A stretch of DNA of 57,128 nt from Cystobasidiomycetes sp. EMM_F5. Lineage: Eukaryota. Where the stretch lies: positions 186,001 to 243,128 of the forward strand of contig JBPGPT010000024.1 of NCBI GenBank assembly GCA_051047955.1, written 5' to 3'. Below the pieces are notes generated by a model, which ran no database searches, had not been told where the DNA came from, and worked only from the letters and a program-made list of their open reading frames with translations. The translations under genes and the position numbers were made by a program. Below are positions 3,514 to 47,113 of the stretch, one piece after another (the first letter of the stretch is position 1; each line of letters opens with the position of its first letter).

Positions 3514-3905
3514 ACTGTGACGCAGCCTGTAGTATATATCAAGATCAGTTCCGACACTCGGCATTGCATCTTCTAACGCACAGCTAGCTGATGTAGGAGA
3601 ATTCAATTCGAGTGAGCAGTTATTGAAATACTCTTGGTGGATTGGTACGCGTAAGAGACAGAAGCATTCGATAGGTATCGATTCAAATCTCTGGCCACAA
3701 ATGAGCTTTTTTGATCAGCTAAAAGACTATGATGTACAGAATACTACTGCGAACACCACTAAAAGCCTCCCTAGCTCGCTGCCTTGCTGCAAGACTTTCT
3801 TTCTCGGCTCAAGCTAGGTCACGTGGCAATTCGATCCTCGCGACAGCGAACACGAGCGGCAGCAGCTTCTCTTGTTGCGCAAACCACAGCGCGTCCACCG
3901 CAAGT

Positions 3906-17279: not shown

Positions 17280-19158
17280 TCAATACTTGTACGCATGATG
17301 AGCGTGGGACGCGCCAGCAGAGAGGGAGGTGCCAAGTAACGAGAGATCGTCATCCAGTCCATCGAACGAGAAACCGATATAAACATCGTCCTTGTCCAGG
17401 TCGTCTTCTTCCGTTTTCACGACGATGCCATTCAAGCGGGGCACAGACACCGTCGACGCGCACTGACCATCGCCCTTGTCTATGTACGCGTCTTCTCTCT
17501 GTCTATCGTTGTGATAGTAAACTAGACACTCGACAGCATACCGCGGAGCGGTATTGTCGGGAGAATGGTAGTCACTTCTGCCATCCAGCTTTGGGACGCG
17601 AAGAATAGTCGCAGGGGGTAACGAGCCATCCACAAAAGCCGGCGAAGGACACGGTTCCTCCGGCTCGTCTTGCAGCAGCTCTTCAACCCTGTCCTCTTCC
17701 ACCTTCTCCACCCTTTCTACCGTATCGCCCCCATTATCCGTTCCCAAGCCATCGAAGAGATACACTAGACCGTCCATATAGCGATCATCGTACGACCCAA
17801 TAAGAAGCTGTTGCCCTGCAGCAGCAGCCATAGCACGATTATGTTCCATCAGTTTCCGCTCCTGTTGAAACCTTTTGAGTTCCATCTTCCACTGTTTACG
17901 GGCAGCTCGACGCAGTATCAAGCGAGCAGCTTCAGCGGCATCGACGGCGCTCTGCCCCGTGACGATATATTCAACCGAAGGTGGAGCGCGAGCTGAAAAG
18001 TCGGAACTTCGAGAGGATGGTACAGAAGTTTGAGAGTGCGATAACGGTGGTACGTCAAGTACTTGTTCGTTTTCAGCTATCGGATCATCTTGCAGATGTC
18101 CAAATGCTTGCAGTATTGCGGGATGTTGATTGCCTTCTCCTGCAAGGCGTGCCAGCGGAGGTACGTGCGTTACCTCGTCGCTGACATTCATCATAGCACC
18201 ATGCAAGTCAGCGAGTGCTGGCAGGGTTGCATTATCTTGATCTTCTTGTCCTTCAGCTACGACTTGCGATATTCCTTTCTGCTCATTCTCCTCAGCTATG
18301 CTCTGGCGCTGCGCAGCATGTAGAGCTCTCGCTATATCCTCCTTGTCGCGTTTGACTGCTCTCCTCTGTCGCTTGCTCAATCGTCGTTTGGCATATCTGC
18401 CAACTCGAATTCCCCCATCGTTCGCTCTCTTCTCATCCGCTGTGTATGGAGAGTCCAATTCATCCTGACTACTATCCGTCGAATCGTCACCTCGCAATCG
18501 AGCGATATGTCCAGCCCAGTCTGGCGAAGGAGTACGTGAGCGAGCGTGACTGTGATCATGTAGCGCAGGCCGTCCAATGATTTCCTGTCGATCTATTCGA
18601 ATAACAGCTCCAAGACTGCTCGCCATATTGTGCAGCGTCTCAAGAGACGTCAGCATGTCTTCGTATAGTATGCCGAGCATCAGCCCATTATCGGCCACTC
18701 CAATCTCATAGATTGCTTCCTGAGGTAGGCGGACGCGAAAGCGATGTTTATTGACAAACGTGGGCCATCATCCGATATAATCAGCACGAAAGGAGTCACT
18801 GAATCAGAACGCGTTTCCGATATTGCATGCTCGTTTACGCCACTATTGGCGCATCAACATGTGCCAAAACTCACACCACCACCCTCCATGAGTCTCCATT
18901 TGAGCTGGGAAGTAAGCCGGGCCATCCTATCCTTGCTCGGGTTCGGTGGAAGCCGCAATTTGTATTCGATATGGCCGTGCAGGTCTTCTTCGGGTACTAG
19001 TGATCTGAAGCTGGATCCGCCGTGGTTTGGGATATTGAGCGCCGGCGAAGCTCGTTCCCACGGCTGCGTATAGTAATGGTAAGTATTAGAATGTATGTAA
19101 AGTCTTGAATTGTTTGTTCCGGCCTCACCGATGGCAGCCGGGGTGACTCGCCCGTCAT
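17280..19158 (-). CDS. Protein with the GTPBP1/GTPBP2 N-terminal domain but no visible G domain
   Basis: Spliced translation MTGESPRLPSPW...LVPEEDLHGHIEYKLRLPPNPSKDRMARLTSQLKWRLMEGGG/EAIYEIGVADNGLMLGI...SLETLHNMASSLGA. The remainder is low-complexity. Confidence 0.8.
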
Positions 19159-26695: not shown

Positions 26696-27578
26696 CTCAA
26701 CATCCCAAGTCGCAGCACGTGTGGGTAGCCGTATCTGAACGCCGAGGCTACGTGCTGCTGACGATTCCTGCAGTCGCATGACCAGCCTGAAGCTGATGAA
26801 GTCCCTCGGTCGCATTCATGTAAATCGACACTGTTTGGGTATTAGGCTTACAAGGCTGAGAGCGGCCTGCAGATTTATTCGGGGATTCAGATGAGGATTG
26901 ATTGCCGTGACGTCGTCTGCGCATACGTTTTAGGAATCTGTCCATACACTTGGAGGGAGCTCAGCTGCAATACATCGATTCTGAAGACCAAGGCGGAGCG
27001 GTTAGCCATGTACTGGCAACAACTCTCACACAATTTCTGGCTGCTTCCTTTGCCCGAGATCTTTAGCAGCAGACAAGATAGTAGCAACGAACAAATACCT
27101 CGTCCCACATGAAAGACGCAAACGCATGTCAATGACATCGACGAGTATTTTGGTTGTCGGTTGTTGGAACTTTAGCGGCATCGACAGCTCTCCGGACAGC
27201 GACCAGGCAGACAATGTTACATACCACTTTCGATGGCAAACGATAGTAGGTCAATGTCCGTCATTGCGCCCGTTGAGCCGACCCAGCTGCTTATGATAAA
27301 TTTGCGCAGTCCACGTTCGTGGCATTCGATCGGAAGACTTAGAGCATAGATGTACTTCCCCGGTGAAGGTACAGTCTTGCTCCTATCGTGCTCTTGTACA
27401 ATGATCACTGTACCTCCGATTTCGATCAACAGACTTGACTTCCTTTTCCCTCAGAGATGCTACTGCTCACTACCGAATGATCAAACTCTACACGTGTACA
27501 CTACTGCTGCGAAAGACGTGCCTTCATCACTGGTCGTCCGCCACTGACACTCCTCGACTACTGGCGTAGCTCCGTCTT

Positions 27579-29293
27579 CTAGCTTGCCACAGCGATCGCG
27601 GTCATCAGACTCGAACACCGTACGGCTAGATCCTCTGTCAACTGAGCCGTCTTTCTAATCCTACTATCCCATCTAGCCGTTTCAGGGGCAACGAGGTATG
27701 GAGGTAATTCACCTGTTCCCATCCCGTCTTCCAATGATGCAGCTGCAGCAGCAGCCGCAGCGACGTTTGAAGACCCACTTTCCGTCTTCTCATCCTTGTT
27801 TTCAGCTCGTTCGAACGTGATGAGGCCCTCGACTTGATCGATCGTAGCGCCTTTCAATCGGCCTTGGATAATCATTGTTCGAGCCATTGCTTCTGCGGCG
27901 CCTTTGGTGAGGCTGAGTAGTTTACCGAGACCGGAAAGAGTGATGTTGGAGTAGATGAGGGATGCAGAAAGTAGATTATGTTCCATGATGGCCTTGTCCA
28001 ATACGTTCTCTGGACCTTGTTTACGGCGTATCCTGCTAGTTGTCTTTGCAGCCTCCCCTATTTGCATGTCACTCTCGCCCGTCTCGACTTCTTCATCATC
28101 GTCCTCGTCAAGTTGCTCCTCGTCATCTGCAACGATGACCAACGACGAAGGACCCAGTTTGGCTTTCTGATGATCTGCCAGCGATTCCGCAAACTGTGCA
28201 GTCTCTTTCGGCTTGATGATTCTGTCTAGAAACATTGCAGAGAGAATCTTGTAGTTTGGTAGTTGAGCGGATCGTTCGTCTCGGTATAGCGTCGCCAAGA
28301 GTCGGGATCGTCGGGGCCCCGCAGCAGAGAGTATGGCACATGTCACTGCAGCACTGAGCATCTGCAATCGCTCTCCAGCGTCGATGGCTGGGACGTAGCT
28401 GTGTAATATATACCGTTTATTTAGCGCGAGCATATAAAGAAGGGTCGTCTTTTCCCACCTGATCTCGTGATACTTGCTTGCTGCTTCGGGGAATTTGCGT
28501 TGCGAGTCGTAGATACGTGCTTGTGACAGCTTAAAGCCAACTGCAGGGAGCCGACGTTAGCAAATACATGCAACACTATTGAAACTCGTCGATGCGCACG
28601 GATAGTCTCCTGATCGTTTGTCAACCTAATGAGATTTTGCGCTCGCGAAAGGTAGCTTTGTGCCGAGACTGTGTCGTTGTCTTCGAGAAGCAGGCGTACG
28701 ATGCGAACGTACATCTTGAGCTTGTACTCGTCGGTGACCGTTCTACGTGGAGAGATGCGTAAGAAGGAGGATAAATTCCGCAGAGATACAAAGCACACCT
28801 GTTACTCGACTCGAAGGGAATGCCCTGGAGCATCTTTGCAGCCTCGCTCCACTCTTCCTCCTGCTCGAGCGCGTCTGCCAGTAGTTCTCGCAATGACGCA
28901 GTCTAGGCCATCAGACGATACTTTCTCAGCGACATTATCAGTATATATCCCCAATGTAAATCATACCTGCTCCTCAAAGCTCGCCTGCCTTGCCAACAGT
29001 GCTTCGAGTATACCTCTTGCTGCGTCCTGCTTTGCCTCTCTATCCGATATCGCTCCATCGGTCAGCCTCTTTACGAGCACTGCGACTACCTGCTTGGACA
29101 CGACCAAGGCTACCGAGTCTTGAATGACTGCCCGCACAAATGCAACGAGCTGACGGGCTGCAGCTGCCTGGTCATCAGCGTTGGACTGCAGGATCCTGTC
29201 CAAAAGGGCAGTGAATGCGCCAGTCTTGCCAGTGGACGGCAGGCGGTCAATATCTGCGAGCGCAGCCTGCATATCCCCAGCTGAGACGGTCAT
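27579..29293 (-). CDS. CSN4: COP9 signalosome subunit 4
   Basis: SFEEQ...LRELLADALEQEEEWSEAAKMLQGIP, KLKMYVRIVRLLLE, AVTCAILSAAGPRRSRLLATLYRDER, and PCI domain KAIMEHNLLSASLIYSNI...IDQVEGLITF. Confidence 0.95.
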
Positions 29294-29873
29294 GGTGTGT
29301 GAGTGCGAGCTGTGTCGTGGTTGATAGCAGAAACGGCCGTCGTTTCAATCTAACATTAATGATCACCGCTGGGCAGTATAGCGGAGACTGGCTGCACTGA
29401 CTTGTGTCCAACGTGCTCACTGACCTCAATAATATGCTCGCACTGATCTTACACGGGTCTTCTTGACCTCCCCAGCTGATCTCGTCGCCTCCTCGGAGCC
29501 CCGCCAAAATCGCAGAAAGACCTGGTTGTTTCTTTCCGCCATTCAGCACACAGCCACCACCACGAACAACGAAAGATCCTTGCATCGTCATCGTCATCGC
29601 TAACAATACTTTTGGTTGACAGGGCCATTCGTCGTCCGGATCTTGGCAATGGCCAAATGCGGAATGACCACCGCCCACACGGTGTGACCGCTCACCGGAA
29701 GCGGACGTATTCGAGGTATCACAGCCGCACTCGATGGATGGCACTGGGAGGTTCGCAATTTCTGGCGGTCTGCTTCTTCTCGTACCCTATCAGCACTCTT
29801 GCTACCATCACACTCATTTCGCACATCCCCCAAATACCAAAGTTCCATCTGCTGGCCAGATTCACTCCCCAAC

Positions 29874-32628
29874 ATGCTTCTCCCTACCTTTATCGCAGCT
29901 TTGCACCTCGCGACATCCCTCTCTACGACTGCGGCCACCCATGTCCCTGTTGGAGCTAGAAGCGGGTCTTTTAGACTCCCTGCAGGATCCAGCAACCTGA
30001 GGCATCGCATGAAGCGTCAGAATCTCGATGGGAAGAAGGCTCTTTCTCGAACAGTTCTTGGTGCCTCTTGGATCGACTCCCTTGATGGTAGCGACGGAAA
30101 GACTGGATTGGCAATGTCTACGCCGTTGGAGGTGTACAGGCTTTCTAAGCGGGAAGCTGAGAGTAGTAAGCTAATACCCTCACTGCTTTTGATTGTACAC
30201 AAATTGAGTATCAAACTGCTACTACAGGCCAGGACGGCAGTGACACCTGCAAGACAGACGATGGTAGCATCACGACCGGCTGCGTAGTAGTGGCTGGAGT
30301 TGCCGTCGTGTTCCTAGGTGAGGCGCATACTATGTCTAGCATAGTCTCGCTCGCAACTGACAAAGTCATGTCTGTTTATTCTTGGCCACAGTCAGCCTTG
30401 GAGTCTGGGTCTCTGTCAAGGTCTACAGACTCTACTTTATCACTTCGCCGCTCGGTAATGAGAACATCAATGGCAGATATGCAGCAACTCTTGAAGACTG
30501 GAACAAATTGCCACAAGACGTTAAAGACTACGTCCAGAAGAACACCCAGGATCCGTCGCTAAAGTCCAACCTCGACAAGGCTAAGGATGCTGGATTGATC
30601 GCAGGTCGGTCTACACTCCAACGTTGTTGCCAGCTTGTCCGCTCAAATTAGGCGCTTTACACTTATTTCAGATGATCCGAAAACAGCCGAGGCTAAACTT
30701 CGCACATACCTCGACCACTGGAATAAAAATGGCGGAACTATGATTGAAACTACAGACGACAAGAATAAACTGGGATCTAACTATAAAGTCCTCGATGCTG
30801 CCACGCAAGCCAAACTCCAGGCCGACTACCCGAATACCTTGAAAATGCAAGAGGGATGGGCCAACTTTGACTTTGTAAGCACAGTCGCATTATACCATTA
30901 TACTTACAGTAATACTAACGAAAACTCCCAATAAATTGTTCTTAACAAGGTTCAAGCTGCACAAGCTGCTGGCCTTTCACCCTACATGGGTACTGACAAT
31001 CAAATCCAGGCGTACGACTTTGATGTAGTCAACGCCGGAATTGAGGCTCAAGTCAACGAGCAACTCCGGATCCTTGCGGATAATTATAACGCTGAATACG
31101 GACAAACCGTCGTGGAAGAAGATGGTGAATGGGTTCAAAAGCAATCGACGGATATTCCCGACTGGATGAAAGGCTTGTTTGATGCTTCCAGTACTGTTGT
31201 TCGTTTCAAACGCTCTCTTCCCGTTCACCCGTGGCCAGACTGACATCGCCTACGGTGTTCAGTTCAGGAGATACTACTTTGAGGACGCCGTCACTACTGG
31301 CAAGATACCGGAAGCGTTGGCAGATGCCGTCAGGCCAATCATGGAATTCGAGTGGTCAGAGGGATCCAAAGAAGCCGCTCAAGGACTGTATGATACCTGG
31401 CTACAAGCCTCAGCAATCGATAAGCCAACTCCAGAAACAGTGGGTCACAAACCCAATATTTCTTCCGGATAGTAAACTCACCCCTCTTAAATCTATGCTA
31501 GTACGTCAAATTTCTTGATGCTGGCGTCTTCAAAATCTCTGGCTTTCAAGACATGTTCAAAGCCATGGATAGGACCGCCTTTGATAGTCTGGCAGCAGAT
31601 CTTGGGGTGCAGAACTACCAGCCTAGGTAGGTCATATCGCTAAGAGAGACGGAAAAACATCTAATGATTCCTACAAATGCAAGGTTTCCCAACGATGCGG
31701 CTCTTCCGCAGAACAATGGCGGGGACAATGGAAGTGGTGATGTCAATCAACAGCCCTCGAAGGACGCCGGAGGTCAAGATGTCTCTGGTAGCGGCGATGA
31801 CCAGAAAGGCAATCAAGCACCCTCAAAGTCTGGCAACTCAGGTAACACAGGGCAGCAGACCGGCAATAAAGGTGGAAATGGGGAACCTGGTCTTGATCCA
31901 GACTGGAGTGACGCTAGTAGTCAGTAATCGTCCGCTTTGACCACAGGCATGGCTGATCTTCTGTGATTCAGCGCCTGATAAGATCGTAGACTCAATTATG
32001 GGTCAGCTCAAAACGAGATGGGGTATAAACACGCCTTCCGACTTCGGGTCCGCCGACAAACAGGTAGCTATCATGGTGCATCAAATCTCGTTGCGATTGT
32101 CAGCTAATGTATGCCCTTCACAGATGGCAGCAATGTTCGATGATCTGCAACAGCGAAGCAAAGCAGCCACAGGTAAAGCATGGCCGGAAACTATAGCGAA
32201 TAGTATCCTCGACGACCTACGGACGGCTACCGAAACCCTCTACGACAGCTTACCAGTCAGTAGCACCAAATGCATCTCAGCGTTTCCTGTGAACTGACCG
32301 TTTGGCACAGGGCGCACAAGTGGCAGGCCAGGGCAATGATCCGTCGAAACAAAGTCAATCGAATGAAGATATATGGAATGAAGGTGGTCCTAATCAACAA
32401 CAGCAAGCTAGTGGTCGGACCGGCCTTAACAACGATCCTGGTACCAACGTCGATACAACCAAACCCAACTATAATTCTCCTGACAAACCAGGCAGCGGCG
32501 GCGCCACGGACGAGACTGGCAAGACCGACAAAACCGTCGAGACACTGCCAGATGAGGTTTTGCCCGCCAGAAAGCGACAGATGGTCCGTCGAGTCAAGCG
32601 TCAGGCTCCTGTCCGGATCTCGTTGTAA
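29874..32628 (+). CDS. Gene A1: uncharacterised secretory-pathway preproprotein, about 11 exons
   Basis: Signal peptide MLLPTFIAALHLATSLSTTAA. Dibasic sites RMKR and LSKR-EAE. Then C-x10-C and hydrophobic VVVAGVAVVFLVSLGVWVSV, a helical body, G/N/Q/D-rich linkers and basic tail LPARKRQMVRRVKRQAPVRISL*. Exons splice in phase at the same positions as A2. Confidence 0.85.
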
Positions 32629-33027
32629 CAGACAGACAAGTATAGCCCAAGCTCCGCCACCCTCTCAAACTCACCACGAGGTCTGCTCAAAACCTTGTTT
32701 GGATCGTTCTGCACACGATGTCAATTCCATCTGCGCCGTATTTAACGTTATCACATAGTAATTGGCAAACCTCAGATTTCCTGACATTGCTATTCATGAA
32801 GAATCAGTACGATCAGCAAGCTTAGTGAGAGAGTAGAGCTTGAAAGTGCGAGATCGAAATTGCAAAGGGCTTGCTCTCTAGCTGGCCGTTCACTATAGCG
32901 TACATGTTTTGGTTTAGCGTGCTTCAACTCGCCAGCTGCAGACTCATACAGTCGACTACGGAAGGTTGGCGGTGTGGAGCACATCGAAATAGAAGTCTCT
33001 CTCTTTATACCCCTTACGTCTTCACTT

Positions 33028-36000
33028 TCATGATCCACCTCGTGCGGCAGCGACCGGGTTGAAGTTTGTAGTCGATGCATCGCAGTCATAATCTGAGACT
33101 GCAGCAGCTGTCAGACGGGTTTCTGGCCACCAATTCGGCATACGGCGCTTACACAGATTATCGTAATGAATATAATCAGACGTGCACGTTGATTGAGCAC
33201 AGCTGGCAGCTCCGTATGCGCCAGAAGCCCCACTAAAGTTGCAAACCCTTTTTTGCAAATGAGCATTTCTCTTCCAAGGGTATCCCATTGGCACTGGGCA
33301 GCTTGGCCTACGATGAACAGACGTCAATGAGAGATTTGGCGGGAACGAAGATGTATTCTACCTCGCTTGAGCTTCATGGTACGCTTCGCTGCAGAACTTG
33401 TATCCTTGAGGCCATAGTGGTCCAGAGCACGTATTGTACGAGCCACTGGTCGAACCCATCTCTGCAGGACGTTATGTGAGCTCTATCCCCGGATCAACTA
33501 GCCTTGCACGTACGATTTGCGCAGTAATAGGAGATGCCCTCCAAGGTGTCGCAGTCGACGGGCGCATTGGAATCCTTGCAATACTGCTTAAGTTGTTGGT
33601 CGTCAACGTCGCACACAGGGATGTTGACAACACAGGTGTCTGTTGCAAGACGGCCAGTGAAACCGATGGGTTGCGGGAAATCCTTTGGGTCACTGCTAAG
33701 TGGGAAGCCACCCCAGGGGTTTACCGTTTTATTTGTTGAGCAACTGAGTGCAGCATTAAATCTATGTAGAAGTGTGTCAGAACACGTCAAGTACCTCGCG
33801 ATTAGTAAAAGGCTCACAATACGTCCAGACTGAATCCGTATTCCTCTCCAGTTGCAATACTGTCCAATTGATCAGACGTCAGTCCGACGCCGATACTAGC
33901 ATCGTATATGGCTGCAGCCTGTACGTCGCAAGGCGCTGGTCAGATCGCGAGCGCCAAAACCGCGTTGACTTTACATACAGGGCAACCATCGAGATCTGAG
34001 ATCGGCCAGAAAGTCTGTTCCCAATATGTAGCGTAGTATAGGCGACTATCGATGCAGGTAGCGCTATTCGCTGATGCCGCTGTACCCTTCAAGGCCGTCT
34101 GACAAGAAGCTGCATCTCCATAGTCTTTGGTAGTGAAGAATATCTTTCGGTCGCGGAAGATCTGTGGATGTAAAACTCAGCACTCTGATGAAGCTTACAA
34201 GCTACCGAGGCTCACGTCGGTGAGCAAGTTTGCCATCAAATATGCAACCATAGTATGAACACTAGCGTAGCTGGGGAACGCGTGAATCAATGAGTCTACC
34301 ATGCCGGGCTTGGACACAAGGTCGTAGATAGATTCGTAGTCTGAAATTGGTACATCTGGGATTAGCTTGACAAATGACTAGGAGTCAGGTCAGACCCACC
34401 TTGAAATCGAGAGCTGACGACCGTGTTTTGCTGCGTCGTATAGTGGTCCTGTTCCGCAGAAGTGTAAGCTGCAGGTCTTAGCGCGCACGGAAGCTTGACG
34501 CGTACGATTATTGGGTCCAATGTTGCTCGGTAGGATGCCGCGTTTAGGTCAGGTTCTGGTATGTTATTTAGTCAGCCAGTGCAGCGATGCGCTACTCGTG
34601 CAACAACACAATACGTACCAGGTGCCATAGGATCGTTTTTGGTTTGCTGATTGTACCATGTCATGAAACCTGAGTTGCCAATCATGAGGAGCATATCCAA
34701 TGGCATCGTTTCCGGGGCAACAAGCATCATTATTCCCAGCACACCGTTCATTATACTGTCGTTGAGACAAGCTGTTAGCCCCAGTCCGCCCAATTTCATG
34801 GGGAAAGAACTGTTCCTCACGTAGAAGTCAATTGCACTTTGAAAGTCCGATGTAATGGCAATGAAGTTAGCGCGTATTTCGTGCAAAGAAAACAAATCAC
34901 ACTGCACCTGGATCCATCGAGTTGTCCGCTGCCTGCTTGCTCAAGCCGAACCCATTGACAATGTTATCCATAAGATTGTCGACATGTTGCAAGGCAGTAT
35001 TCGCGTTTCCTATGAGATTCCAGCTGACAGGTACAAGACATCAGATTTGGTGTCAACTGCTGGCCTTCGAGGAACGCACGCAATGTTGTTGTAATTGCTC
35101 AAAGCCTCCAAGATCAGATCTGCAAATGCAAGCGATATGTACTTATAATTTAGTGAACGATGTATGTTTACACCATGATGACTCCTCACAGGCGCCAACT
35201 TGGTCTGAGATACGCGAAGACGTGAGCAAGGTCGTGCCCAATTGCATCGAGAACATCTATCGTACCTTGACGATAGTACAAATCTTTCGTTCCGGTAGGC
35301 GTGTATGGCGAAACAGGGGTGTCGATGACGCATTCTGCGGCTCTAATACATATGTATCGACTGATCAGTTGTATACGACTCTCGTCTATCAACGGAAGAT
35401 TGCGTACGGTGTGCAGTCGAAGGTGTAGCCATCCTTTAATGTGGCGGCAAATTGGTGCGTGAATGTAGTCGACGAAGTGCTACACAGCGTGACAACATCA
35501 GCGTGACAACATCAGCGTGACAACATCAGCGTGAGTTGCGCCCCAGCGACAAAGCAGTATCAGACACACTCCATTGTGTCTAGGCCGTTTTCCTTGACAA
35601 AGCCCGTAAACCAATCGAGGATGTTGCATTTCTCTGCGAACCAGCACGAGCGTACACAGCGTTAGCTACGTGCATATCCCGCAAATGCACATTACCCTTA
35701 CCAAATATGCCCTTGAGAGCAGAAGCAGTTGGATCATACAATGTGTAACAGAAATCATCCTTTGCAAGTAGAAGAAATTGTCAGCCAGTCTATTCTACCT
35801 ATACAAACGGTGCATAAAAGAACCTGGAGCGCAGAACACTGATTGAAGAGCGAGTCCCAGTATCCCATGGCACCCAGTCCACAATCCCGACAGACACCTT
35901 GGTAACAAGTTGTCTGGCCAAGTTGGTCTTGTGTAGTGCAGGCCAGACCTATGCCTCCACAATTATTTATATCTGATGATATGTCAATACAATTGCCAGT

Positions 36001-36760
36001 ATTGGGATCTTTGATTGAGCCAGTAGCGCATTGGGCATCGCTGTCGTACAGAAAGTATCAGAGACGTGTCAGCAGGACCGGAAGCTGCTGGAATGAGAAG
36101 TCCGGATCTGCGTCGCTCACCATTTGCCTGTTGCGCAAGGCGCAATACTGGTATACGTTGCCGAAGTTACAGAAATTGACGACGAGGACGAGGAAGAGCT
36201 TGAGGTGCTTGAGGTGCTTGATAAGAGACTGGTAGAGGAGGAGGAGGACGTGGAAGTGGAAGAAGCCGAGACAGTAGAAGTAGTGGAAGAAATGGACGAA
36301 GTTGTAAGGGAAACAGACGTTGATGTCGTGCTGGGAGTAAAGAAAGATGCGGATTTGGATGTAGCGCTTTCTGCGGTTGACGATGTCGAGTAGGCGCTGC
36401 TCGTCGACGAAGCCTCTTTGGACGATGACCAGCTCGTGGAAGAGGACGAGGCTGATTTCCAAATGTCGGCTGCTGTTGTAGCAGAGTATCCCGACGAAGA
36501 GGCTAACGACCATGCATTCTTCGCAGTGGAAGAATCGGCACTGCCACCACGACGCACCAGGCGTCTGAAGTGTGAGCTATCACGGTCGTTGACATTCAGG
36601 TGTCGACCACCATGATGCTGATTGCCGTCGACGGCTGTGATGAGAACGACACTCCAAATCGTCAGAGCCCGTAATTGATGCCTATAGCCACTTGCAAATG
36701 CTCACCGGTAAGAATACACAGGGCAGCCAGAAGGAGCGCAGGTTGAAATGTAGCGAGCAT
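33028..36760 (-). CDS. Gene B1: uncharacterised secreted Cys-rich protein, about 20 introns
   Basis: Signal peptide MLATFQPALLLAALCILTAVDG, then RRLVRR and an S/T stalk. Cys module CIDISSDINNCGGIGLAC. Central region DLILEALSNYNN ... IMNGVLGIMMLVAPETMPLDMLLMIG. C-terminal Cys-rich region and WKRNAHLQKR-VCNF...AARGGS*. Confidence 0.85.
35485..35534. repeat. 14-bp tandem repeat (CAGCGTGACAACAT) x3.6 in an intron of gene B1
   Basis: cagcgtgacaacat-cagcgtgacaacat-cagcgtgacaacat-cagcgtga read directly. Absent from the equivalent B2 intron. Confidence 0.95.
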
Positions 36761-37740
36761 CCTGTCTCCACTTAGGACCAGCTAGCGGGTAAACTTGACG
36801 CAAACAAGGGTTGGAGGGTATACGAAGACGCTAGGCAAGACTTGAGAGGGATTAGAGACGTCTATAGTTGTAGGCTGCCTGCCCTGCTCGGTGCAAATGT
36901 CAAACTTAGTATTCCTTCAGACCTCAGGCACCAACTGCCATATTCGTGCTGCGAACATCGCCAGCTGGGGCCTGGCTGTCACAGAATGGGACAGATGGCC
37001 ATGCGGGGCTGCGTGCAAGTCTTTGCATTCCCGATGTATACATCAGTGAGCGTAAAAGGGCTGCAGCTCCGCCGTCGGAGGCGTCGTGCTCGAAAGATGC
37101 AGTGTATGCCGTGGTGTCGAAGGTGGACGGCTGATGGCAGCCGCAGTCTATCTGCAAAGCGAGGTCCGCATGGCTCCAGTTCAGATGGTCATGGTCATGG
37201 CCTGTGTGCTTTCGCGGCGTGCATTTGTCGAAGGCAACGCCGTATTGTCCTCTCATTTTCATGGCACTGACCACTTGAGTATACGCTGACAGACTTGAAT
37301 ACTCATACGATGCTCTCACTGACTCTAACGGTCTTACTAACCACTGCAAACGGTCTCGTCTACCTTGCTGAAGAGCCTGAGCCCGTCAGTGGCAAAAGGG
37401 CCTTGTTGTGCTTTGCGGTTTTCAGCACACAGCCCCGCCCAAAACCATACAGCAGCTGCAGCAGAGACACACACAGCGACGTGTCTAACAATAACCTTGA
37501 CAGGGCCATGCGCCGACCGGATCTTGGCAAAAATGGCACAAATGGCCGAATGCGGAATGGTGCCCACAGCCTACTGTATATAGATGTACGTTCTGGACCA
37601 CTGATCAGAAGCGCACCTTAAAATTGTTATCACTTTATGGAATTGACGGTTCCCTTCCTAGCATACGTACAGCTCAGCTTTGATAGCAGCTGAATCCGTC
37701 ACCACCTTCATAGTACCTCCTGTTCAGATTTCCCCACAAC

Positions 37741-40444
37741 ATGCTACTCCCAACTTTCATAGCCGCGTTGCATCTAGCGACTTCCTTCTCAACGACTGCG
37801 GCCAGCCATGTCCCTGTAGGAGCTGGAAGCGGGTCTTTCAGGCTCCCGCTGGGGTCTGACAGCATCAGGCATCGAATGAAGCGCCATAACCTCGATGGGA
37901 AGAACGACATAAGTCGAAAGCTGGCTGGCGCTTCTCGTATCGAGTCCCTTGTTGCACCGACTGTTGGGCTAGCAAATTCTTCACCGATTGATGTTGTAAC
38001 TGAAAACAAGCTATCCAAGCGGGAAGCCGATCAAAGTGAGCCATGTATCTCTCTCCTTATGGCTATACGACTGACGTTCCTCCGTCTCTCCAGGCCAGGC
38101 CGACAACGACAGCTGCAAGGCAGAGGATGGCAGCACTATGCTCGGCTGTGTGATAGTCACTGGAGTGGCTGTCGTCTTCGTAGGCAAGTATACCTACTTA
38201 AACACCCTTGCATGTAAGAATCCGCCGGCTGACGATTCTTGCATTTATACTACAACAGCGGTCTTTATGACCTGGGTTGGCGTCAATGTTTACAGACTCT
38301 ACTTTGTTACCAGCCCGCTTGCCAATGAGAACATCAACGGCAAGACTGCACCTACGTATGAGGACTTTAACAAGTTGCCTGAAGACGTCAAACAATACAT
38401 CGAACAAAACACGCAAGACCCGTCCTTTCAGGCCAATCTCGACAAGGCCAAGGATGCTGGATTGATTTCAGGTCGGTTTCGATCTGCACAGCAAAGGAAA
38501 GCTCCTCCGAATGGCTTACCCTCAAACCGTTCTCAGATGATCCGAAAACAGCTGAAGCAAATTTGCGCACGTATCTCGACCAATATACCAAAAATGACGG
38601 AACTGGAATTGAAGGTCCACAAGTCCAGAATAAGCTCGCGTCCAACTATAAAGTCCTTGATGCTGCTACACAAGCCAAACTCCAGTCCGACTATCCGAAT
38701 ACTCTGGATCTGCAAGCGAGCTGGGCCAAGTTCGACCCCGTAAGCTGCATTTGCACCGCAACATTGTCATAAGCATTAATGGTCGGTTCTCCACATTTCA
38801 TCGTGATAAGATGCAAGCCGCGCAAGCTGCTGGTCTTCAACCTTACATTGGAACCAATAATCAGATTCTGCAGAGCAATTTCGACGCAGTCAATTCTGGA
38901 ATCGAATCCCTGATCAATGGGCAGCTTCAGAACCTTGCGGACACTTATAACGCTGAGTACCCCAATCAGGTTGCCGATCTAGGTGGTAACAGTCAACCGG
39001 CCCAGTCACAATCGACAGTTCCTGAATGGATGAAAGCTTTGTATGATTCTTCCAATCCTGTCGTACGTATTCGTCATGGGATTGCGTTCAATCGCCGCTG
39101 ACTAACGTTAGCCGCCATGTTCAGTTTAGAAAGTACTACTTTGAAGACGCTGTCACGTCCGGCAAGATACCAGCGGCCGTGGCAGATGCCGTCAGACCGA
39201 TCATACAAGCAGAATGGACAGAGGGATCCAAGGAAGCCGCTCAAGATCTTTACAATAATTGGTTAGACGTCACCCAAACAACAAATCCCACACCCGACAA
39301 CGTAGGCTGAAGCCATGTCATGTTTATGCTTTAACGAACTTACCCCTCTTGATTCTATACTAGTACGTCGACTTCCTCCATTCCGGTGTCCTTGAAATCT
39401 CAGGCTTCCAAGGCTTGTACAATGCCATGGACAGGACCGCCTTTGATAGTCTGGCAGCAGATCTAGGAGTACAGAATTACCAGCCCAGGTATTCCAGCCC
39501 GGGCACGACATATCGTTAGTAGCACAACTAACTTGTTTTCTGAACGCAAGATTTCCGAACGATGCGGCTGTTCCGCAAAACAATGGCGACGACAATGGCG
39601 GGAACAATGGCGATGGAGGTAATGGTCAAGACCCCTCAAAGTCCGGCAATTCGGGCACGCAGCAACAGAATGGTAATAAAGATGGAAACGCACAGCCTGA
39701 TCTTGATCCCGACTGGAGCGATGCTAGTAGTCAGTCTCCTTTACCACGATGATCGCCAAATTTGCTGATTCCCATTATTCGCTCAAGCACCTGACAAGAT
39801 TGTAGATTCAGTTGTAAACGAGCTCAAAACGAGATGGGGCATCAATGCGCCATCTGACTTTGCGTCGGCCGACAAACAGGTAATGATAACGACTTGTTGC
39901 TATCGCCGCAGCACCTAATAAATGCATATCGCGCACAGATGGCAGCTGTCTTTACTGATCTACAACAGCAGAGCAAAGCAGCCACAGGGAAAGCATGGCC
40001 ACAAGATATTGTGTCCAAAATGATTCTGCAATTGAGAGAAGCTACTGAGACCCTGTACGACAGCCTACCCGTGAGCATTGTTAGACTGAGTATTCTCATT
40101 CCTCCCGGAATCTGACTATTTTTGTACAGGGTGTCCAAGCCCAAGGTCAAGATAATGACCAGTCGCAAGAGAATCAGTCGAGCGATGAATTGTGGAATGA
40201 AGGTGGTGCTAATCAACAGCAACAGAGTAGCGGCCGGACCGCGATCAACAATGATCCTGGTACAAATGTCGACACTACCAAGCCGAATTATAATTCTGGT
40301 AATAAGCCGGGGAGCGATCCTACTACTGACAAGAGCGGCACTGATAAGACCAGCGAGACACTGCCAGATGACATACTGCCCGCAAGGAAGCGACGAGTCG
40401 TCCGTCGAGACAAGCGTCAGGCTCCTGTGCGGCTGTCGTTGTAA
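37741..40444 (+). CDS. Gene A2: paralog of A1
   Basis: MLLPTFIAALHLATSFSTTAA, RMKR, LSKR-EAD, GCVIVTGVAVVFVAVFMTWVGVNVYRLYF, and tail LPARKRRVVRRDKRQAPVRLSL*. Introns at the same positions as A1. Confidence 0.85.
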
Positions 40445-40783
40445 CAGACAGAAACTCCTCTCGATTTCTTCGTAGATGGCCTGAGTTAGGTCTGTTACAT
40501 GTCGCCTGTTATAACTCCGTATTTGATCGACCTCAGATGCTCTGGTCTACTGTCCGGGAAAGATTAGTAATGATTAAGTAGAGTAGCGATCTTCGCGGAA
40601 ATGCAGAGTTTGAGAATGCAAGATCTGAAGTTACAAAAATTTAGCGCTATAGGTGCCGTTCCAATAATAGCGCACACGTATTGTTTACAGCCCTCCGACT
40701 GGCCAGACTCGCTTAGTTCACTACGGAAGTTGTTGTTGGTCAACACACCTAGCTACATGTTGCTCTCTCTGCCGCTTACGTCA

Positions 40784-43700
40784 TCATTGTCGCGACCCAC
40801 CTCGTGCGGCAGCGACCGGGTTATATTTCGTGGTCGATGCATCGCAATTGTAATCTGAGACTGCAGCAGCTGTCAGAGGAGCTCCCGACCGTCATATGTC
40901 ACTTGACGCTTACATAGATTATCATAGTGAATATACCTTGAGATGCACGTTGACTGAGCACAGCTGGCAGCTCCGTATGCCCCAGCAGCCCCGCCAAAGT
41001 TACAAACCCGTTTTTGCAAATGAGCATTTCTCTTCCAAGGGTATCCCATTGGCACTGGGCAGCTTGGCCTACGATGAACAGACGTCAATGAGAGATTTGG
41101 CGGGAACGAAGATGTATTCTACCTCGCTTGAGCTTCATGGTACGCTTCGCTGCAGAACTTGTATCCTTGAGGCCATAGTGGTCCAGAGCACGTATTGTAC
41201 GAGCCACTGGTCGAACCCATCTCTGCAGGACGTTATGTGAGCTCTATCCCCGGATCAACTAGCCTTGCACGTACGATTTGCGCAGTAATAGGAGATGCCC
41301 TCCAAGGTGTCGCAGTCGACGGGCGCATTGGAATCCTTGCAATACTGCTTAAGTTGTTGGTCGTCAACGTCGCACACAGGGATGTTGACAACACAGGTGT
41401 CTGTTGCAAGACGGCCAGTGAAACCGATGGGTTGCGGGAAATCCTTTGGGTCACTGCTAAGTGGGAAGCCACCCCAGGGGTTTACCGTTTTATTTGTTGA
41501 GCAACTGAGTGCAGCATTAAATCTATGTAGAAGTGTGTCAGAACACGTCAAGTACCTCGCGATTAGTAAAAGGCTCACAATACGTCCAGACTGAATCCGT
41601 ATTCCTCTCCAGTTGCAATACTGTCCAATTGATCAGACGTCAGTCCGACGCCGATACTAGCATCGTATATGGCTGCAGCCTGTACGTCGCAAGGCGCTGG
41701 TCAGATCGCGAGCGCCAAAACCGCGTTGACTTTACATACAGGGCAACCATCGAGATCTGAGATCGGCCAGAAAGTCTGTTCCCAATATGTAGCGTAGTAT
41801 AGGCGACTATCGATGCAGGTAGCGCTATTCGCTGATGCCGCTGTACCCTTCAAGGCCGTCTGACAAGAAGCTGCATCTCCATAGTCTTTGGTAGTGAAGA
41901 ATATCTTTCGGTCGCGGAAAATCTGTAAATGCAATACTTAGCCCCCTGAAATCATGACTCGCAATGAAGGAAGCCGACGTCGGTAAGCAAGTTCGCCATC
42001 AAGTATGCCACCATAGTGTCGACACTGGCGTAGCTAGGAAATGCGTGGATCAGTGAGTTCACCATGCCTGGCTTGGACAGAAGTTCGTGAACAGTGTCAT
42101 AGTCTGTAATAAGTGAGACGACTTGATTAGCTTGGCGAATTATGCAGTAGTCCGGTCAAACCCACTTTGGAAACGATTAGTAACGACCAGATTTTGCTGC
42201 TTCGTATAGTGGTCCTGATTGGAATATGTAAGTCATTGACATTTTGCACACACTGGCCTGACACGCACGACTATAGGATCCAGGGTTGCCCTGTATGACG
42301 CCGCGTTGAGGTCAGGTTCTAATACGAAATCTGGTCAGCCAGTGCAGCTATGCGCTGTTCGTATAAGAGTGCAACAAGTACCCGGTGCCATGGGGTCCGT
42401 CTTGGTTTGCGCATTGTACCATGTCATGACGCCCGAGTTGGCAATCATGAGGAGCATATCCAAGGGCATCGTTTCCGGGACGGCAAGCATCATTATTCCG
42501 AGCAAACCATTCATGATACTGTAATGATAAATGGCTGTCAGCTGCAGTATGCCAAACCTACTTCGCAGTAGACGTCACTCACGTTGATGCGAGTTGCACT
42601 GTGAAGGTTCGGCATTGGATTTAGCGGATTATGCGTAGACACAAGACAAAGCAATCCGTACCTGGATCCATTGTATTGTTTTTCGCCTGCTGGCTCAAGC
42701 CAAACCCATTCACTATGTTGTCCATGAGATTGTCGACATGCACGATAGCAGTGTTCGCATTCGTGATAAGGTTCCACCTGACAGGGCCGAACATCGCGTC
42801 AAATTTTGCATAAATATTACGCTAGGACATACGCACGCAATGTTGTTATAGTTGCTCAGAGCCTCCAAGATTAGATCTGCGACATATGCTCGTAAGTCGA
42901 AATTGAACTATGCCTCCATCAGTACAAATGCTCACAAGCACCCATTTGGTCTGTGGGGCCATGCAGACGTGAGCATCTCTGTTATCCCGGCACGACAGAA
43001 AACAACTCTCTTACCTTGCCGATAATACAGATCGGTAGTTCCGGGAGGCGTATAAGGGGAAACAGGTGTATTAATTGTGCATTCTGCCGCTCTGAAGAGT
43101 GTTCCGACGGATCAATCACAAGCAACGTGGACTAATATGTGGAGCAAACCTACGGGGTACAGTCAAAGGTGTATCCGTTCTTCAGCTTGGCTGCAAATGC
43201 ATGCGTGAAGGTAGTTGAAGAAGTGCTGCAGAGTAGAAAGGGTTCAAGATCAGATTGAGCGGTATTTGCGACATGTTCTGAAGCAGTAGAGACGTACTCC
43301 ATGGTGTCAAGCCCGTGTTTCTTGGAAAAGGTGGTGAACCAGTCGAGAACGTTGCATTTCTCTGCGATTGAGCGAAATATGAGCGAAGTGCGAGCTACAT
43401 TCTTATTACACCTCTCTTTGCCCGTACCGAAAACGCCTTTGAGGGCAGAGGCAGTTGGATCATCCAATGTGTAACAGAAATCATCCTGTGTAAGAAGGCA
43501 AATGTCAGCCAGTCTGTCCTAGCTATCCAAGTGGTGCGTAAAAAAACCTCGAGGGCAGAACACTCATTGAAGAGCGAATCCCAGTACCCCATAGCACCCA
43601 GTCCACAATCTTGACAAGCACCTTGATAGCAAGTTGTCTGGCCAAGTTGGTCTTTTGTGGTGCACGCCAGACCTATACCTCCACAGTTTTTGATATCTGA

Positions 43701-44442
43701 TGATATATCAATACATTTGCCACTATTGGGATCTTTGACTGAGCCGGCAGCACATTGAGCATCGCTGTCCCACAAAATAAATAGAGATGTGTAAGCAGGT
43801 CCGGAAGAAGCTGGAGTATCAGAATCTGCGTTACTCGCCATTTGCCCGTCGCGCAAGGTGCAATACTGGAGGACGTTGCCGAAGTTACAGAAACTGATGA
43901 TGAAGACGAGGATGAGCTTGATGAGCGACTGATGGAGGAAGACGACGTGGAAGTGGCAGTAGCCGACACAGTAGAGATAGTGGACGACGTGGATGAGGAT
44001 ACCCGTGCAACAGACGTGGACGTCGTGCTGGGAGTAAAGAAAGATGCGGGTTTGGTGGTAGCGCTTTCTGCAGTCGACGACGTCGAGTAGGCGCTGCTCG
44101 TCAACGGAGCTCCCTTGGACGATGACCAGCTCGCGGAGGAGGACGAGTCCGATTTCCGAATGTCGGCTGCTGTTGTAGCAGAGGACGACCATGCATTCTT
44201 CGCAGTGGAAGAATTGGCGCTACCACCACGACGCGCCAGGCGTCTGAAGTGGGAGCCGTTACGGTCGTTATTATTCAGATGTCGACCACCATGATGTTGA
44301 TTCCCTTCGACGGCTGTGAATGAAGTACGTTCAAACCACGCGATATAGTTAGAACTTCAAATATCAGACGAGTTGATCAATACTTACTGGCGTAAATGGA
44401 CAAGACGACCAGGAGGATTGTTGATGGGGAGATGGCGAGCAT
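40784..44442 (-). CDS. Gene B2: paralog of B1
   Basis: MLAISPSTILLVVLSIYA signal, RRLARR, S/T stalk, CIDISSDIKNCGGIGLAC, and C-terminus WKRNAHLQKR-VCNFGG...AARGGSRQ* (stop 40786-40784). Confidence 0.85.
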
Positions 44443-45045
44443 AGTGTCTCCACCCTAGGTCCAGCTAGCGGGGGAGGTTTGGAAAGTGAATGCGGTCAGT
44501 ACGTCAAGAGGATACTCCAGATATCCACAAGGACGTCCGCAAGATCGGTTTCTCCATTCTACGCCCGCCCATTGTTATTGTTCCTTCAGCCTTCAGGGAC
44601 GACCACCTGCCATATCCGTGCGACGACATCGCCAGCTGGGAAAGGCAGTACAGCCTGGGCAGACAGAACAAGACACATGGCGGTGTAAGCTGAGTGCGAA
44701 TGTGTATGTACCGTCAGCTTGCGGATCAGCGAGCAAAGCGGTCAGCATCATGATGTCCATGTGTTCAGAATTGCTTGTGACCAGTTTCGAATACAGACAC
44801 TGGAACACCTCGACGGTGTACGAGCATTCCGATTAGCCATGCCAGGTCTTGTCTGGTCTGTGTTACTTATCATTTTCATTCATTGGTGGTCTGGCAGTCT
44901 GGCAACCCAAGACCAGCTCAATGAAGCCTATCGTGATGTCCACCACCAACTCCCTGTCCGTAATAATCTTCCAGCATACTATCGTCGCGACAATTGATGT
45001 ACAACTAAAACTAAATGCCTATTATCTACTCTTGGCGCTGCGGAT

Positions 45046-47113
45046 CTATTGCCTTCTCGCCGGCGCAGAGGTTGCAGCTGTTGGTCCAGGACTGTGACCC
45101 CTAGCATTACTCTGAGCTTTCCTGGGTGGCAGAGTATCATCGTTGTTGTTTGAAGTCCCTACACTTCCACCTCCCGTCGAAGCATTGAGTCCCAGCTTCT
45201 GCCGACTTCGAGACTGCCTCACATCTTTCGAAGTATTGCTAGCGGGCAGTGGTGCAGCGGCAGCCAAAACGGGATTTGCTGCACCTCCAGTGTTCGATAG
45301 TGTCCGCGCTGGTGCAACAGCTGGAACCGTAGCAACAGCGACTGGAGAGACGGCCGGAGTAGCTTTTGCGACCACTGTCACAGCTGCAACCACACCAGCT
45401 TTCCAATGGCCCTTGTTATTGATTCGCTCTAATTCTCTCGGATCTTGCGGTCTGCGAGAAGGACACAAATTAAGCTTCACTTTGTTGCTGCCAAGAATAC
45501 CAGACCAACCTCAACCTCAACCATTGCATTCGTGGACCAGACCTCGCCCTCTCAGACACCTTGAACCCATAGATCCTGGGAATATATATCTTTGCTGCGC
45601 TAGTCACGCTTGTCGACCATGGTACCTCGCCATCACCCGATATATCTGCCATTGCGCTATCGTCAATCACAGCGGCACCGCCTGTCGACTTGCTTGTGTC
45701 TACAGTGCTATTTTGTCGACTGCGCTGATCTGGAGCTGGGGAAGTAGGAGCAGAGGAGGGAGGAGCTGTACTCGTTGTTTGCGTAACCAAGCCATTATTG
45801 AGCGGAGGCACCAACTCGGGATGTTGTTGGAATAGAAGATGAGGAAAAGTCGTGCCGAAGAAAGCGCCGTCGACGCCATTGAAGCGAGAAGAAGGTGGCG
45901 TATAGGTATCTAGACAGTTGGGACAAAATAGCTTGACGCCATCCACACCGGGTAGATCTGAGCGACCACTTGGGAGTACACGGGTCTGGTTGCAGAATAC
46001 CCTTGGACAGTAGCCGAAATGCGCATTCTCGTATTTCGTCACCATCTGTGCGAGACCTTGACGCGTCAGAATATATCGCTGGTGGATCAGACCATACAAG
46101 AGCTCTGCCGACGACTCGACAATGGACATGTCTGGTATCTTGAGCGCTTCCTCCTCTGCAGCACATCATGCTAGGTCAGCACACTCAATGTCGCGTATAT
46201 ACAGAGAGTCGACGAACCTGGCTCAACATCCAAAACCATCTCTAGCGCTTCTTTGTAGAATGGTACCAGCTGACTCAGCCCTGTTAGATTAAAGTCGTCT
46301 TCGATAAAGTCTTCTGTTACTTCGGCAAAGTCTGTGGGTTGTATACATAAGCCAGCGAAGAAGGCATCGCCATAGGACAACTTACACTCATGCCCAGGAA
46401 GAGAGCAATACCAGGAGATCCAAGTTAAGCTATCTGTGCCAGATTGTGATGATGATTCTGTTGATTTGGCGTATGTCAGAAACGATCTGCAGGCAAGTAG
46501 TACGACATGCTTTCAACATACCATACTCTTCTTCTTCGTCATCTTCCTCTTCCTCCTCCTCTTCTTCCTCGTCGTCCTCTCCCGCTATCGCCATTTCCTC
46601 GCCTAGGGCGTCCAGAATCTCTTCACCAACAAAATCCTCCTCGTCGAGCTCCTCCTCCGCTGGCTCGTCACCGTCCTGAAGACCTGTCCCAGCTTGCCCT
46701 GTCGGCTTGTAGATTTCCCACTGCGGACTGCCAGTACGCTCTGCCGAGTTTCTGTTGCTTCTGCCTGGCTGCCCTAGGGCTTCCTCGTCTGGGACATCCT
46801 CCTCGAGCGCTTCGTCATCGTCTTGCCCTACCATCACAGAGTCGTTGTGGGCATTGAGCGTAGGATTGGGCGCCTGGTGAGACGAGGATCGACGACGGGA
46901 ACTGCCAGACTGTGCGCCCGGCGACCCAGCTGGATGGCCCGCGTGCTGCTGCTGGCGTTTGCTAGACTGAGAATGGGAAGTTGTCGGGGCTGTAGAAATC
47001 TCAGAGTACGTCGTTGTGCTGGCTGCTGTTGGAGCGTTTGTTGCAAAAGGAGAGCCCGCAGACGATGGCCCAGCTTCAGCGAGGAGCCGGGCAGAAGCGC
47101 GCCTGGATCCCAT
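45046..47113 (-). CDS. CKB1: Casein kinase II regulatory beta subunit, multi-exon
   Basis: LTWISWYCSLPGHE, FAEVTEDFIEDDFNLTGL, SAELLYGLIHQRYILT, zinc ribbon FGYCPRVFC...VKLFCPNCLDTY, DGAFFGTTFPHL, and YIPRIYGFKVSERARSGPRMQWLR. Confidence 0.95.

Follow-up and report, generated by a model that had tools for sequence, protein, structure and literature searches.

We examined a 57,128-nt stretch of the genome of Cystobasidiomycetes sp. EMM_F5 (GenBank assembly GCA_051047955.1, contig JBPGPT010000024.1, positions 186,001 to 243,128 of the forward strand), called the window below and numbered from its first letter, in which a 7.8 kb block is present as a tandem duplicate between a PCI-domain gene and the gene for the beta subunit of casein kinase II (CK2-beta). 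Each unit of the block holds two protein-coding genes, named A and B here, in the overall order A1> <B1 A2> <B2; A and B are convergent within each unit, and B1 and A2 stand head-to-head across about 980 bp. A preliminary description of this DNA had proposed a tandemly duplicated two-gene cassette, and the spacing of the repeats, the collinear alignment of the units and the gene models for A1(+), B1(-), A2(+) and B2(-) all bear this out. The units and the genes, with protein lengths in amino acids (aa), are the following.

29430..37299 (edges approximate), no strand: tandem duplication unit 1, from its collinear alignment with unit 2 and a repeat spacing of about 7.7-7.87 kb
29874..32628, + strand: gene A1, 11 exons, 708 aa, curated by hand, its upstream ATG backed by conservation in A2; exons 29874-30165, 30228-30317, 30392-30604, 30672-30874, 30950-31198, 31263-31439, 31502-31626, 31684-31919, 31972-32063, 32124-32255, 32311-32628
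33494..36760, - strand: gene B1, 17 exons, 713 aa, curated by hand from the B1/B2 alignment; exons 36760-36706, 36634-36121, 36040-35824, 35759-35702, 35633-35570, 35479-35408, 35342-35266, 35119-35080, 35023-34908, 34836-34821, 34755-34619, 34555-34506, 34448-34400, 34340-34216, 34161-33979, 33918-33818, 33761-33494
37300..44900 (edges approximate), no strand: tandem duplication unit 2, from the repeat families and the unit alignment
37741..40444, + strand: gene A2, 11 exons, 690 aa, curated by hand, intron 2 being GC-AG, 75 nt and in frame; exons 37741-38035, 38094-38183, 38259-38471, 38537-38739, 38811-39062, 39125-39301, 39364-39488, 39551-39729, 39788-39879, 39939-40070, 40130-40444
41255..44442, - strand: gene B2, 17 exons, 700 aa, projected from B1, intron 2 being GC-AG; exons 44442-44388, 44313-43839, 43764-43548, 43485-43428, 43361-43298, 43225-43154, 43091-43015, 42876-42837, 42777-42662, 42598-42583, 42518-42382, 42318-42269, 42214-42166, 42103-41979, 41922-41740, 41679-41579, 41522-41255

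A repeat scan of the window found 24 families of direct repeats and no inverted repeats, and every one of the 20 direct-repeat families listed consists of two copies lying 7679-7867 nt apart. By global alignment, units 1 and 2 are collinear from about 29430/37300 to about 36970/44640, with an identity that is mostly 55-87% per 100 columns. A and B were thus copied together in a single collinear block, as had been suggested, and they are unrelated to each other, the score of their local alignment being no better than that of shuffled sequences (z = -0.6).

A simple automatic gene finder mis-modelled several exons and disagreed between the copies; we curated the exons by hand from alignments of the paralogues, and for B2 the exon ends of B1 were projected through the unit alignment, which yielded 700 aa in an open frame. 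The two copies agree in all 26 intron positions (10 in A and 16 in B), and the four frames are open over 28 exon pairs. Introns measure 52-146 nt overall. Those of unit 1 are GT-AG throughout (26 of 26, among them the 16 introns of B1, at 54-146 nt), and unit 2 has two GC-AG introns, at 38184-38258 (A2) and 43765-43838 (B2). Behind the GC donor stands AAGT in A2 and GAGT in B2, which resembles the usual context of GC-AG introns. Retention of the stop-free, 75-nt intron of A2 would add 25 residues inside the membrane helix of the protein. A 16-nt micro-exon (34821-34836 in B1, 42583-42598 in B2) has conserved splice signals on both sides, and it is by including it that both B copies stay in frame. 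On these models the earlier claim of four genes with open, in-phase exons would hold, provided that the two GC-AG introns and the micro-exon are spliced as predicted. Intron 5 of B1 also carries a perfect tandem repeat of 14 nt x 3.6 (35485-35534), which accounts for its length of 90 nt versus 72 nt in B2.

For gene A, the public annotation differs from ours at the 5′ end. The NCBI model of A1 (EMMF5_004714, 667 aa) begins at an internal Met, as does that of A2 (EMMF5_004716, 628 aa), which also lacks half of the transmembrane (TM) helix; the two models omit 45 conserved N-terminal codons that make up the signal peptide (29874-30010 and 37741-37880). Across codons 1-60, A1 and A2 differ at a proportion of 0.53 of synonymous sites (pS) and 0.12 of nonsynonymous sites (pN), and the low pN relative to pS supports the upstream start codon. 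With the corrected models, both A proteins regain their signal peptide, and A2 the missing half of its membrane helix.

Comparison of the copies shows constraint on the exons of both genes. A1 and A2 share 69.1% protein identity (473 of 685 aligned residues), with a synonymous divergence (dS) of 1.11 and a ratio of nonsynonymous to synonymous divergence (dN/dS) of 0.185; for B1 and B2 the corresponding values are 86.6% (606 of 700), 0.47 and 0.16. The excess of synonymous changes noted in the preliminary description is found in both genes, with pS 0.58 versus pN 0.18 in A and 0.35 versus 0.07 in B. All 10 introns of A are only 42-56% identical between the copies, as are 14 of the 16 introns of B at 44-75%, the other two being 100% identical. 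This low intron identity marks the exons as the conserved part, and in gene A it indicates an old duplication with constrained exons. Both copies of A and of B are kept under purifying selection.

One part of the block departs from this pattern, namely a tract of 909 bp that is identical between the units; it covers B's three final exons with their two introns and runs 244 bp into the 3′ flank.

33250..34158, no strand: 909-bp tract, copy 1, identical to 41011-41919
41011..41919, no strand: 909-bp tract, copy 2, identical to 33250-34158

The simplest reading of the tract, and a likely one, is a recent gene conversion. The genome was assembled with SPAdes from 2x151-nt reads (PMC12697161), and a short-read assembler could have flattened a few differences within the tract. 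Beside it, the convergent intergenic stretch 33000-33250 is 74-94% identical per 100 columns to 40760-41010, which is above the exons of A, and has no match in Rfam; an earlier round of conversion or a conserved 3′ element may account for the similarity.

Protein A begins with a hydrophobic, signal-peptide-like N-terminus, followed by an ectodomain of about 95 aa (about 20% Ser/Thr) with the motifs RHRMKR and LSKREA. Besides the signal peptide there is a single hydrophobic peak above 1.3, and not the seven of a seven-helix protein; it lies at residues 116-134 with a Kyte-Doolittle 19-residue mean of 2.73, within a segment of 19-23 residues that is flanked by acidic residues on its N-side and basic ones on its C-side, with K/R directly after. 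The only cysteines stand at 105 and 116 in A1 and at 106 and 117 in A2, and the second of them opens the hydrophobic segment. Next comes a tail of about 570 aa, free of cysteine and with one N-glycosylation sequon in A1, which contains Q/N/G-rich linkers (up to 40% in residues 401-500 of A2) and ends in a conserved basic cluster, RKRxxxRRxKRQ. A search of A for internal repeats came up empty (all z <= 1.1), and AlphaFold2, run on a three-sequence alignment, gave helices and long coil only, with a mean predicted local distance difference test score (pLDDT) of 30.4. Judged from these sequence features, A is probably a membrane protein of type I, with a tail that signal peptide and charge pattern together place in the cytosol. 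The preliminary description had listed A as a secreted preproprotein with dibasic sites and a strongly hydrophobic segment; the signal peptide, the dibasic motifs and the hydrophobic segment are all there, but the predicted membrane anchorage and long cytosolic tail speak against secretion of the whole.

A search with A by HMMER against 1,835,955,588 representative proteins returned 10 matches at E <= 0.001, six of them 100% identical to the window and four of them fragments at 36-65% identity. Of these divergent fragments, two are listed by NCBI under the same organism, and the remaining two are tied to them by a shared cluster, contig or identical stretch. No homologue beyond this genome was found among the 1.84 billion representative proteins. 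A1 and A2 (EMMF5_004714 and EMMF5_004716) lie on the 243-kb contig, a paralogue (EMMF5_006305) on a 63-kb contig and another, partial one (EMMF5_005914) on a 105-kb contig. EMMF5_006305 has in common with A the LSKREA motif, the Cys...GC pair and the TM helix, with the dibasic LSKR about 22 residues before that helix in A1, A2 and the paralogue alike; EMMF5_005914 has the basic C-terminus in common with A. The A family thus numbers at least four loci, all observed in this organism alone. Full-length A had no Pfam match even at E <= 10, a PDB sequence search gave no match at E <= 1, the ESM Atlas no usable match, and a metagenome scan with a three-sequence A pattern 598 pattern matches, none of which was confirmed. 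As a multi-copy, taxonomically restricted family of membrane proteins under selection, gene A is a clean example of its kind. The two copies on the other contigs carry annotations as truncated or partial proteins (300 aa and 103 aa) and may lie at contig ends, a hint of still more repeats of the family that interrupted the assembly.

Protein B has a clear signal peptide and a pro-region with two conserved RR motifs (FRRL(V/A)RR), followed by a Ser/Thr-rich stalk of about 130 aa (50-65% S/T; residues 101-200 are 65% S+T in B1 and 52% in B2), a cysteine-rich exon and a large C-terminal region of about 450 aa. It has 24-25 cysteines in all, 24 of them in the mature protein. The tandem repeats of the stalk are limited to two short 9-nt arrays. 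No hydrophobic peak near the end was found that would suit a glycosylphosphatidylinositol (GPI)-type C-terminus, the end being polar and cysteine-containing. The signal peptide, the dibasic motifs and the secretory character of B agree with its earlier listing as a secreted preproprotein, but its internal hydrophobic segment is moderate (Kyte-Doolittle 1.6-1.7, with charged residues after it) and not strong as had been described.

Profile and PDB searches and structure prediction with B used single contiguous exons and not the spliced protein. The best Pfam match of the cysteine-rich exon was in both copies the CPL1-like domain (PF21671), at 11.2 bits (E 0.41) in B1 and 14.4 bits (E 0.04) in B2, below the gathering cut-off of 27.4 bits. 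B resembles Cryptococcus Cpl1 (bioRxiv 10.1101/2021.09.02.458767) in being secreted and, at this sub-threshold level, in its cysteine-rich exon, and the rest of B has no counterpart there. The last exon of B, as a single-exon query, scored 18.1 bits against DUF7872 (PF25278; cut-off 26), a family that is itself uncharacterised and for which our literature search found no paper. The match covers 33 of the 224 profile positions (186-218), and the exons before the last gave none to this family. Word-index searches with the last-exon frame returned nothing among longer or similar-length proteins, an exact look-up in the protein collection found none of the 10 Met-started reading frames of B, and a metagenome scan with the last exon gave 292 pattern matches, none of them confirmed. 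With a B exon the ESM Atlas returned only scores of at most 0.84, to leucine-rich repeat clusters, below the level of a lead. AlphaFold2 modelled the cysteine-rich exon, from two sequences, at a mean pLDDT of 53.2; like the model of A, this one is of too low a quality for a comparison of folds. Neither A nor B had been assigned to a named family before, and this stands: Pfam has nothing above threshold for either protein and the PDB sequence search no match at E <= 1 (for B, with exons as queries in both cases).

Taken together, we see about an even chance that the block is an old segmental duplicate of two unrelated, lineage-restricted genes of the secretory pathway with a likely role at the cell surface, and that A and B are neighbours copied together and not a demonstrated two-part machine. 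A single segmental duplication copies whatever it spans, and for this reason co-duplication alone does not demonstrate a functional link. One such tandem event would have copied the 7.8 kb block, with both copies of both genes staying functional ever since. In the product of A, the signal peptide would be cleaved off, leaving the ectodomain of about 95 aa outside the cell, the single membrane-spanning helix and, in the cytosol, about 570 aa of Q/N/G-rich linkers and helical modules. Some 22 residues ahead of the membrane, at LSKR-EA, A may then be cut by Kex2 in the Golgi; what stays behind would be a short stub that a two-cysteine loop closes off. B, for its part, would be a secreted or wall-associated glycoprotein, with a Ser/Thr stalk that is presumably O-mannosylated. 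Both would probably act at the surface of the yeast cell on leaves, where they could serve sensing, adhesion or the organisation of the wall. The host is a yeast from Magnolia leaves and the first of its family to have its genome sequenced, with no sequenced sister taxon (PMC12697161). Plant-surface yeasts are poorly studied.

Known surface proteins offer partial parallels for a role of this type. Mid2 and Wsc1 are fungal type I surface sensors, and A resembles them in its layout of signal peptide, lone TM helix and cytosolic tail, but differs in that its ectodomain is only about 20% Ser/Thr, a WSC domain is missing and the tail is far longer. B shares its signal peptide and Ser/Thr-rich stalk with mucin-like wall proteins and adhesins, whereas the GPI-type C-terminus of anchored wall mucins is absent and the two short 9-nt arrays are all that the stalk has in common with repeat-type ones.

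Several points weigh against our reading of A and B as surface genes copied side by side. The long retention of both secretory genes in both copies is explained by a functional pair no less readily than by a chance neighbourhood. The gene models are based on paralogue conservation and splice signals only, and the GC-AG introns and the 16-nt micro-exon could mean that B2 or A2 is poorly spliced. Family placement of B is weak, given searches with contiguous exons only, and the structure prediction for A is uninformative (mean pLDDT 30), and so speaks for no particular role. Finally, the host has no sequenced sister taxon, so the orphan status of A may partly reflect sampling.

An alternative that was among the variants offered in the preliminary description, and that we regard as possible, though on balance unlikely, is that A and B form a functional ligand/receptor pair in which B, or a propeptide of about 70 aa released from A by Kex2, is the signal and A the membrane transducer, the duplication having produced two diverging pairs. 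This would suit the lasting integrity of both genes in both units (dS about 0.5-1.1, dN/dS <0.2), the entry of both products into the secretory pathway and the head-to-head arrangement of B1 and A2 across about 980 bp. A precedent exists in a plant-associated basidiomycete, Ustilago maydis, in which, according to the published account (PMC13652807), the gene of the secreted protein Pit2 is linked to that of the membrane receptor Pit1/Gpe1 and a Pit2-derived peptide activates the receptor. The likeness lies in a secreted-protein gene that adjoins a membrane-protein gene; by its published description, Pit1/Gpe1 is a 435-aa G protein-coupled receptor with seven helices, as against the one helix and tail of about 570 aa in A. 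Other observations at the locus run counter to a pair. A and B are convergent within each unit and hence share no promoter, and the four 450-bp upstream regions have not a single 7-9-mer common to all. A has also diverged far more than B (69% versus 87% identity), its ectodomain is short, and it has paralogues at other loci. If A and B do act together, they would be a second, unrelated example of the recently described Pit2/Gpe1 principle, in which a secreted ligand is encoded beside its own receptor; otherwise, the locus keeps its worth as a well-resolved segmental duplication with partial gene conversion.

We think it rather improbable that A and B make up a self-contained, lineage-specific module for surface signalling or antagonism that diversifies via tandem duplication, dispersal and gene conversion. 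The secreted, cysteine-rich glycoprotein B would in that case be matched to a Kex2-processed A, whose tail would transduce a signal or protect the cell, and the two families, without known relatives, would make up a fungal ligand/receptor or toxin/immunity pair of a new type.

The preliminary description had put forward, as a candidate, a binary toxin system of Kex2-processed preproproteins, with A and B as a toxin and either its delivery subunit or an immunity partner; this we now hold to be quite improbable. The preprotoxins of K1, K28 and KP6 are small soluble precursors whose mature subunits are extracellular and disulfide-linked. A and B resemble them in the signal peptide, the hydrophobic segment and the conserved Kex2-type dibasic motifs, whose cleavage is a prediction only and which include a KR-EA similar to the Kex2/Ste13 site of yeast secreted precursors; moreover, B is cysteine-rich and secreted, A and B share with many antagonism genes their duplication and their restriction to one lineage, and a membrane protein such as A could act as an immunity factor. 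The architecture of A fits poorly, however. It is a membrane protein of 708 aa, at least twice the size of those toxins, with a strong TM helix, two cysteines and a tail of about 570 aa that is cysteine-free in A1 and predicted to be cytosolic, in which position the C-terminal dibasic cluster would be out of the reach of Kex2. B, a large mucin-like glycoprotein of 713 aa, is likewise well above the size of classical preprotoxins. Family support is missing too, with no Pfam family, toxin families included, at threshold and no sequence match in the PDB at E <= 1 (B searched as exons in both). The overall dN/dS of 0.16-0.19 bears no sign of an arms race, and a killer phenotype is absent from the genome announcement (PMC12697161).

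There is only a slim chance that A is a membrane-tethered regulator, in which Kex2-type shedding leaves a stub of about 22 residues, intramembrane cleavage follows and the freed Q/N-rich tail enters the nucleus via its basic cluster. The conserved dibasic site that precedes the TM helix of A1, A2 and EMMF5_006305, the Q/N/G-rich linkers and the conserved RKRxxxRRxKRQ would all suit such a route, but Pfam found no DNA-binding or other known domain in A, the structure model is uninformative, and each step is deduced from motifs, of which basic clusters and low-complexity linkers are common. Equally slight is the prospect that one or more of the four genes are decaying or that the identical tract is an assembly artefact: the two non-canonical GC donors among the 26 introns of unit 2, the capacity of a short-read SPAdes assembly (2x151 nt) to merge near-identical repeats and the departure of the NCBI models of A1 and A2 from the hand-curated ones are outweighed by four open frames over 28 exon pairs, purifying selection along the whole length, GC donors in a familiar context (AAGT/GAGT) and the fact that merged copies would still have to be nearly identical.

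Outside the block, the neighbouring genes on both sides lie on the minus strand.

27579..29344, - strand: left flank, PCI-domain gene (CSN4 in the preliminary description), Pfam PCI, E 5.4e-11
45470..46165, - strand: right flank, main exon of the casein kinase II beta subunit gene, Pfam CK_II_beta, E 4.4e-47

The identification of CK2-beta is upheld (E 4e-47), as is that of a PCI-domain gene (E 5e-11), for which CSN4 is a candidate label at the level of the subunit. The wider window holds ordinary housekeeping genes (ankyrin, PQ-loop, tyrosine phosphatase, PHD, PAF acetylhydrolase and WD40), with no Pfam transposon family among the 25 long reading frames scanned and no Rfam match in 27000-47000. 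The GC content at third codon positions is 0.51-0.54 in A and B, inside the range of the flank genes (0.43-0.56), so a compositional sign of recent transfer is absent. Three long open frames at 3723-6056, 14283-16559 and 17280-18767 (777, 758 and 495 aa), without a Pfam match at E <= 1e-5, may encode further lineage-specific or low-complexity proteins. The sole tRNA gene of the window, a tRNA-Gln (CTG) at 2802-2880, lies far from the block.

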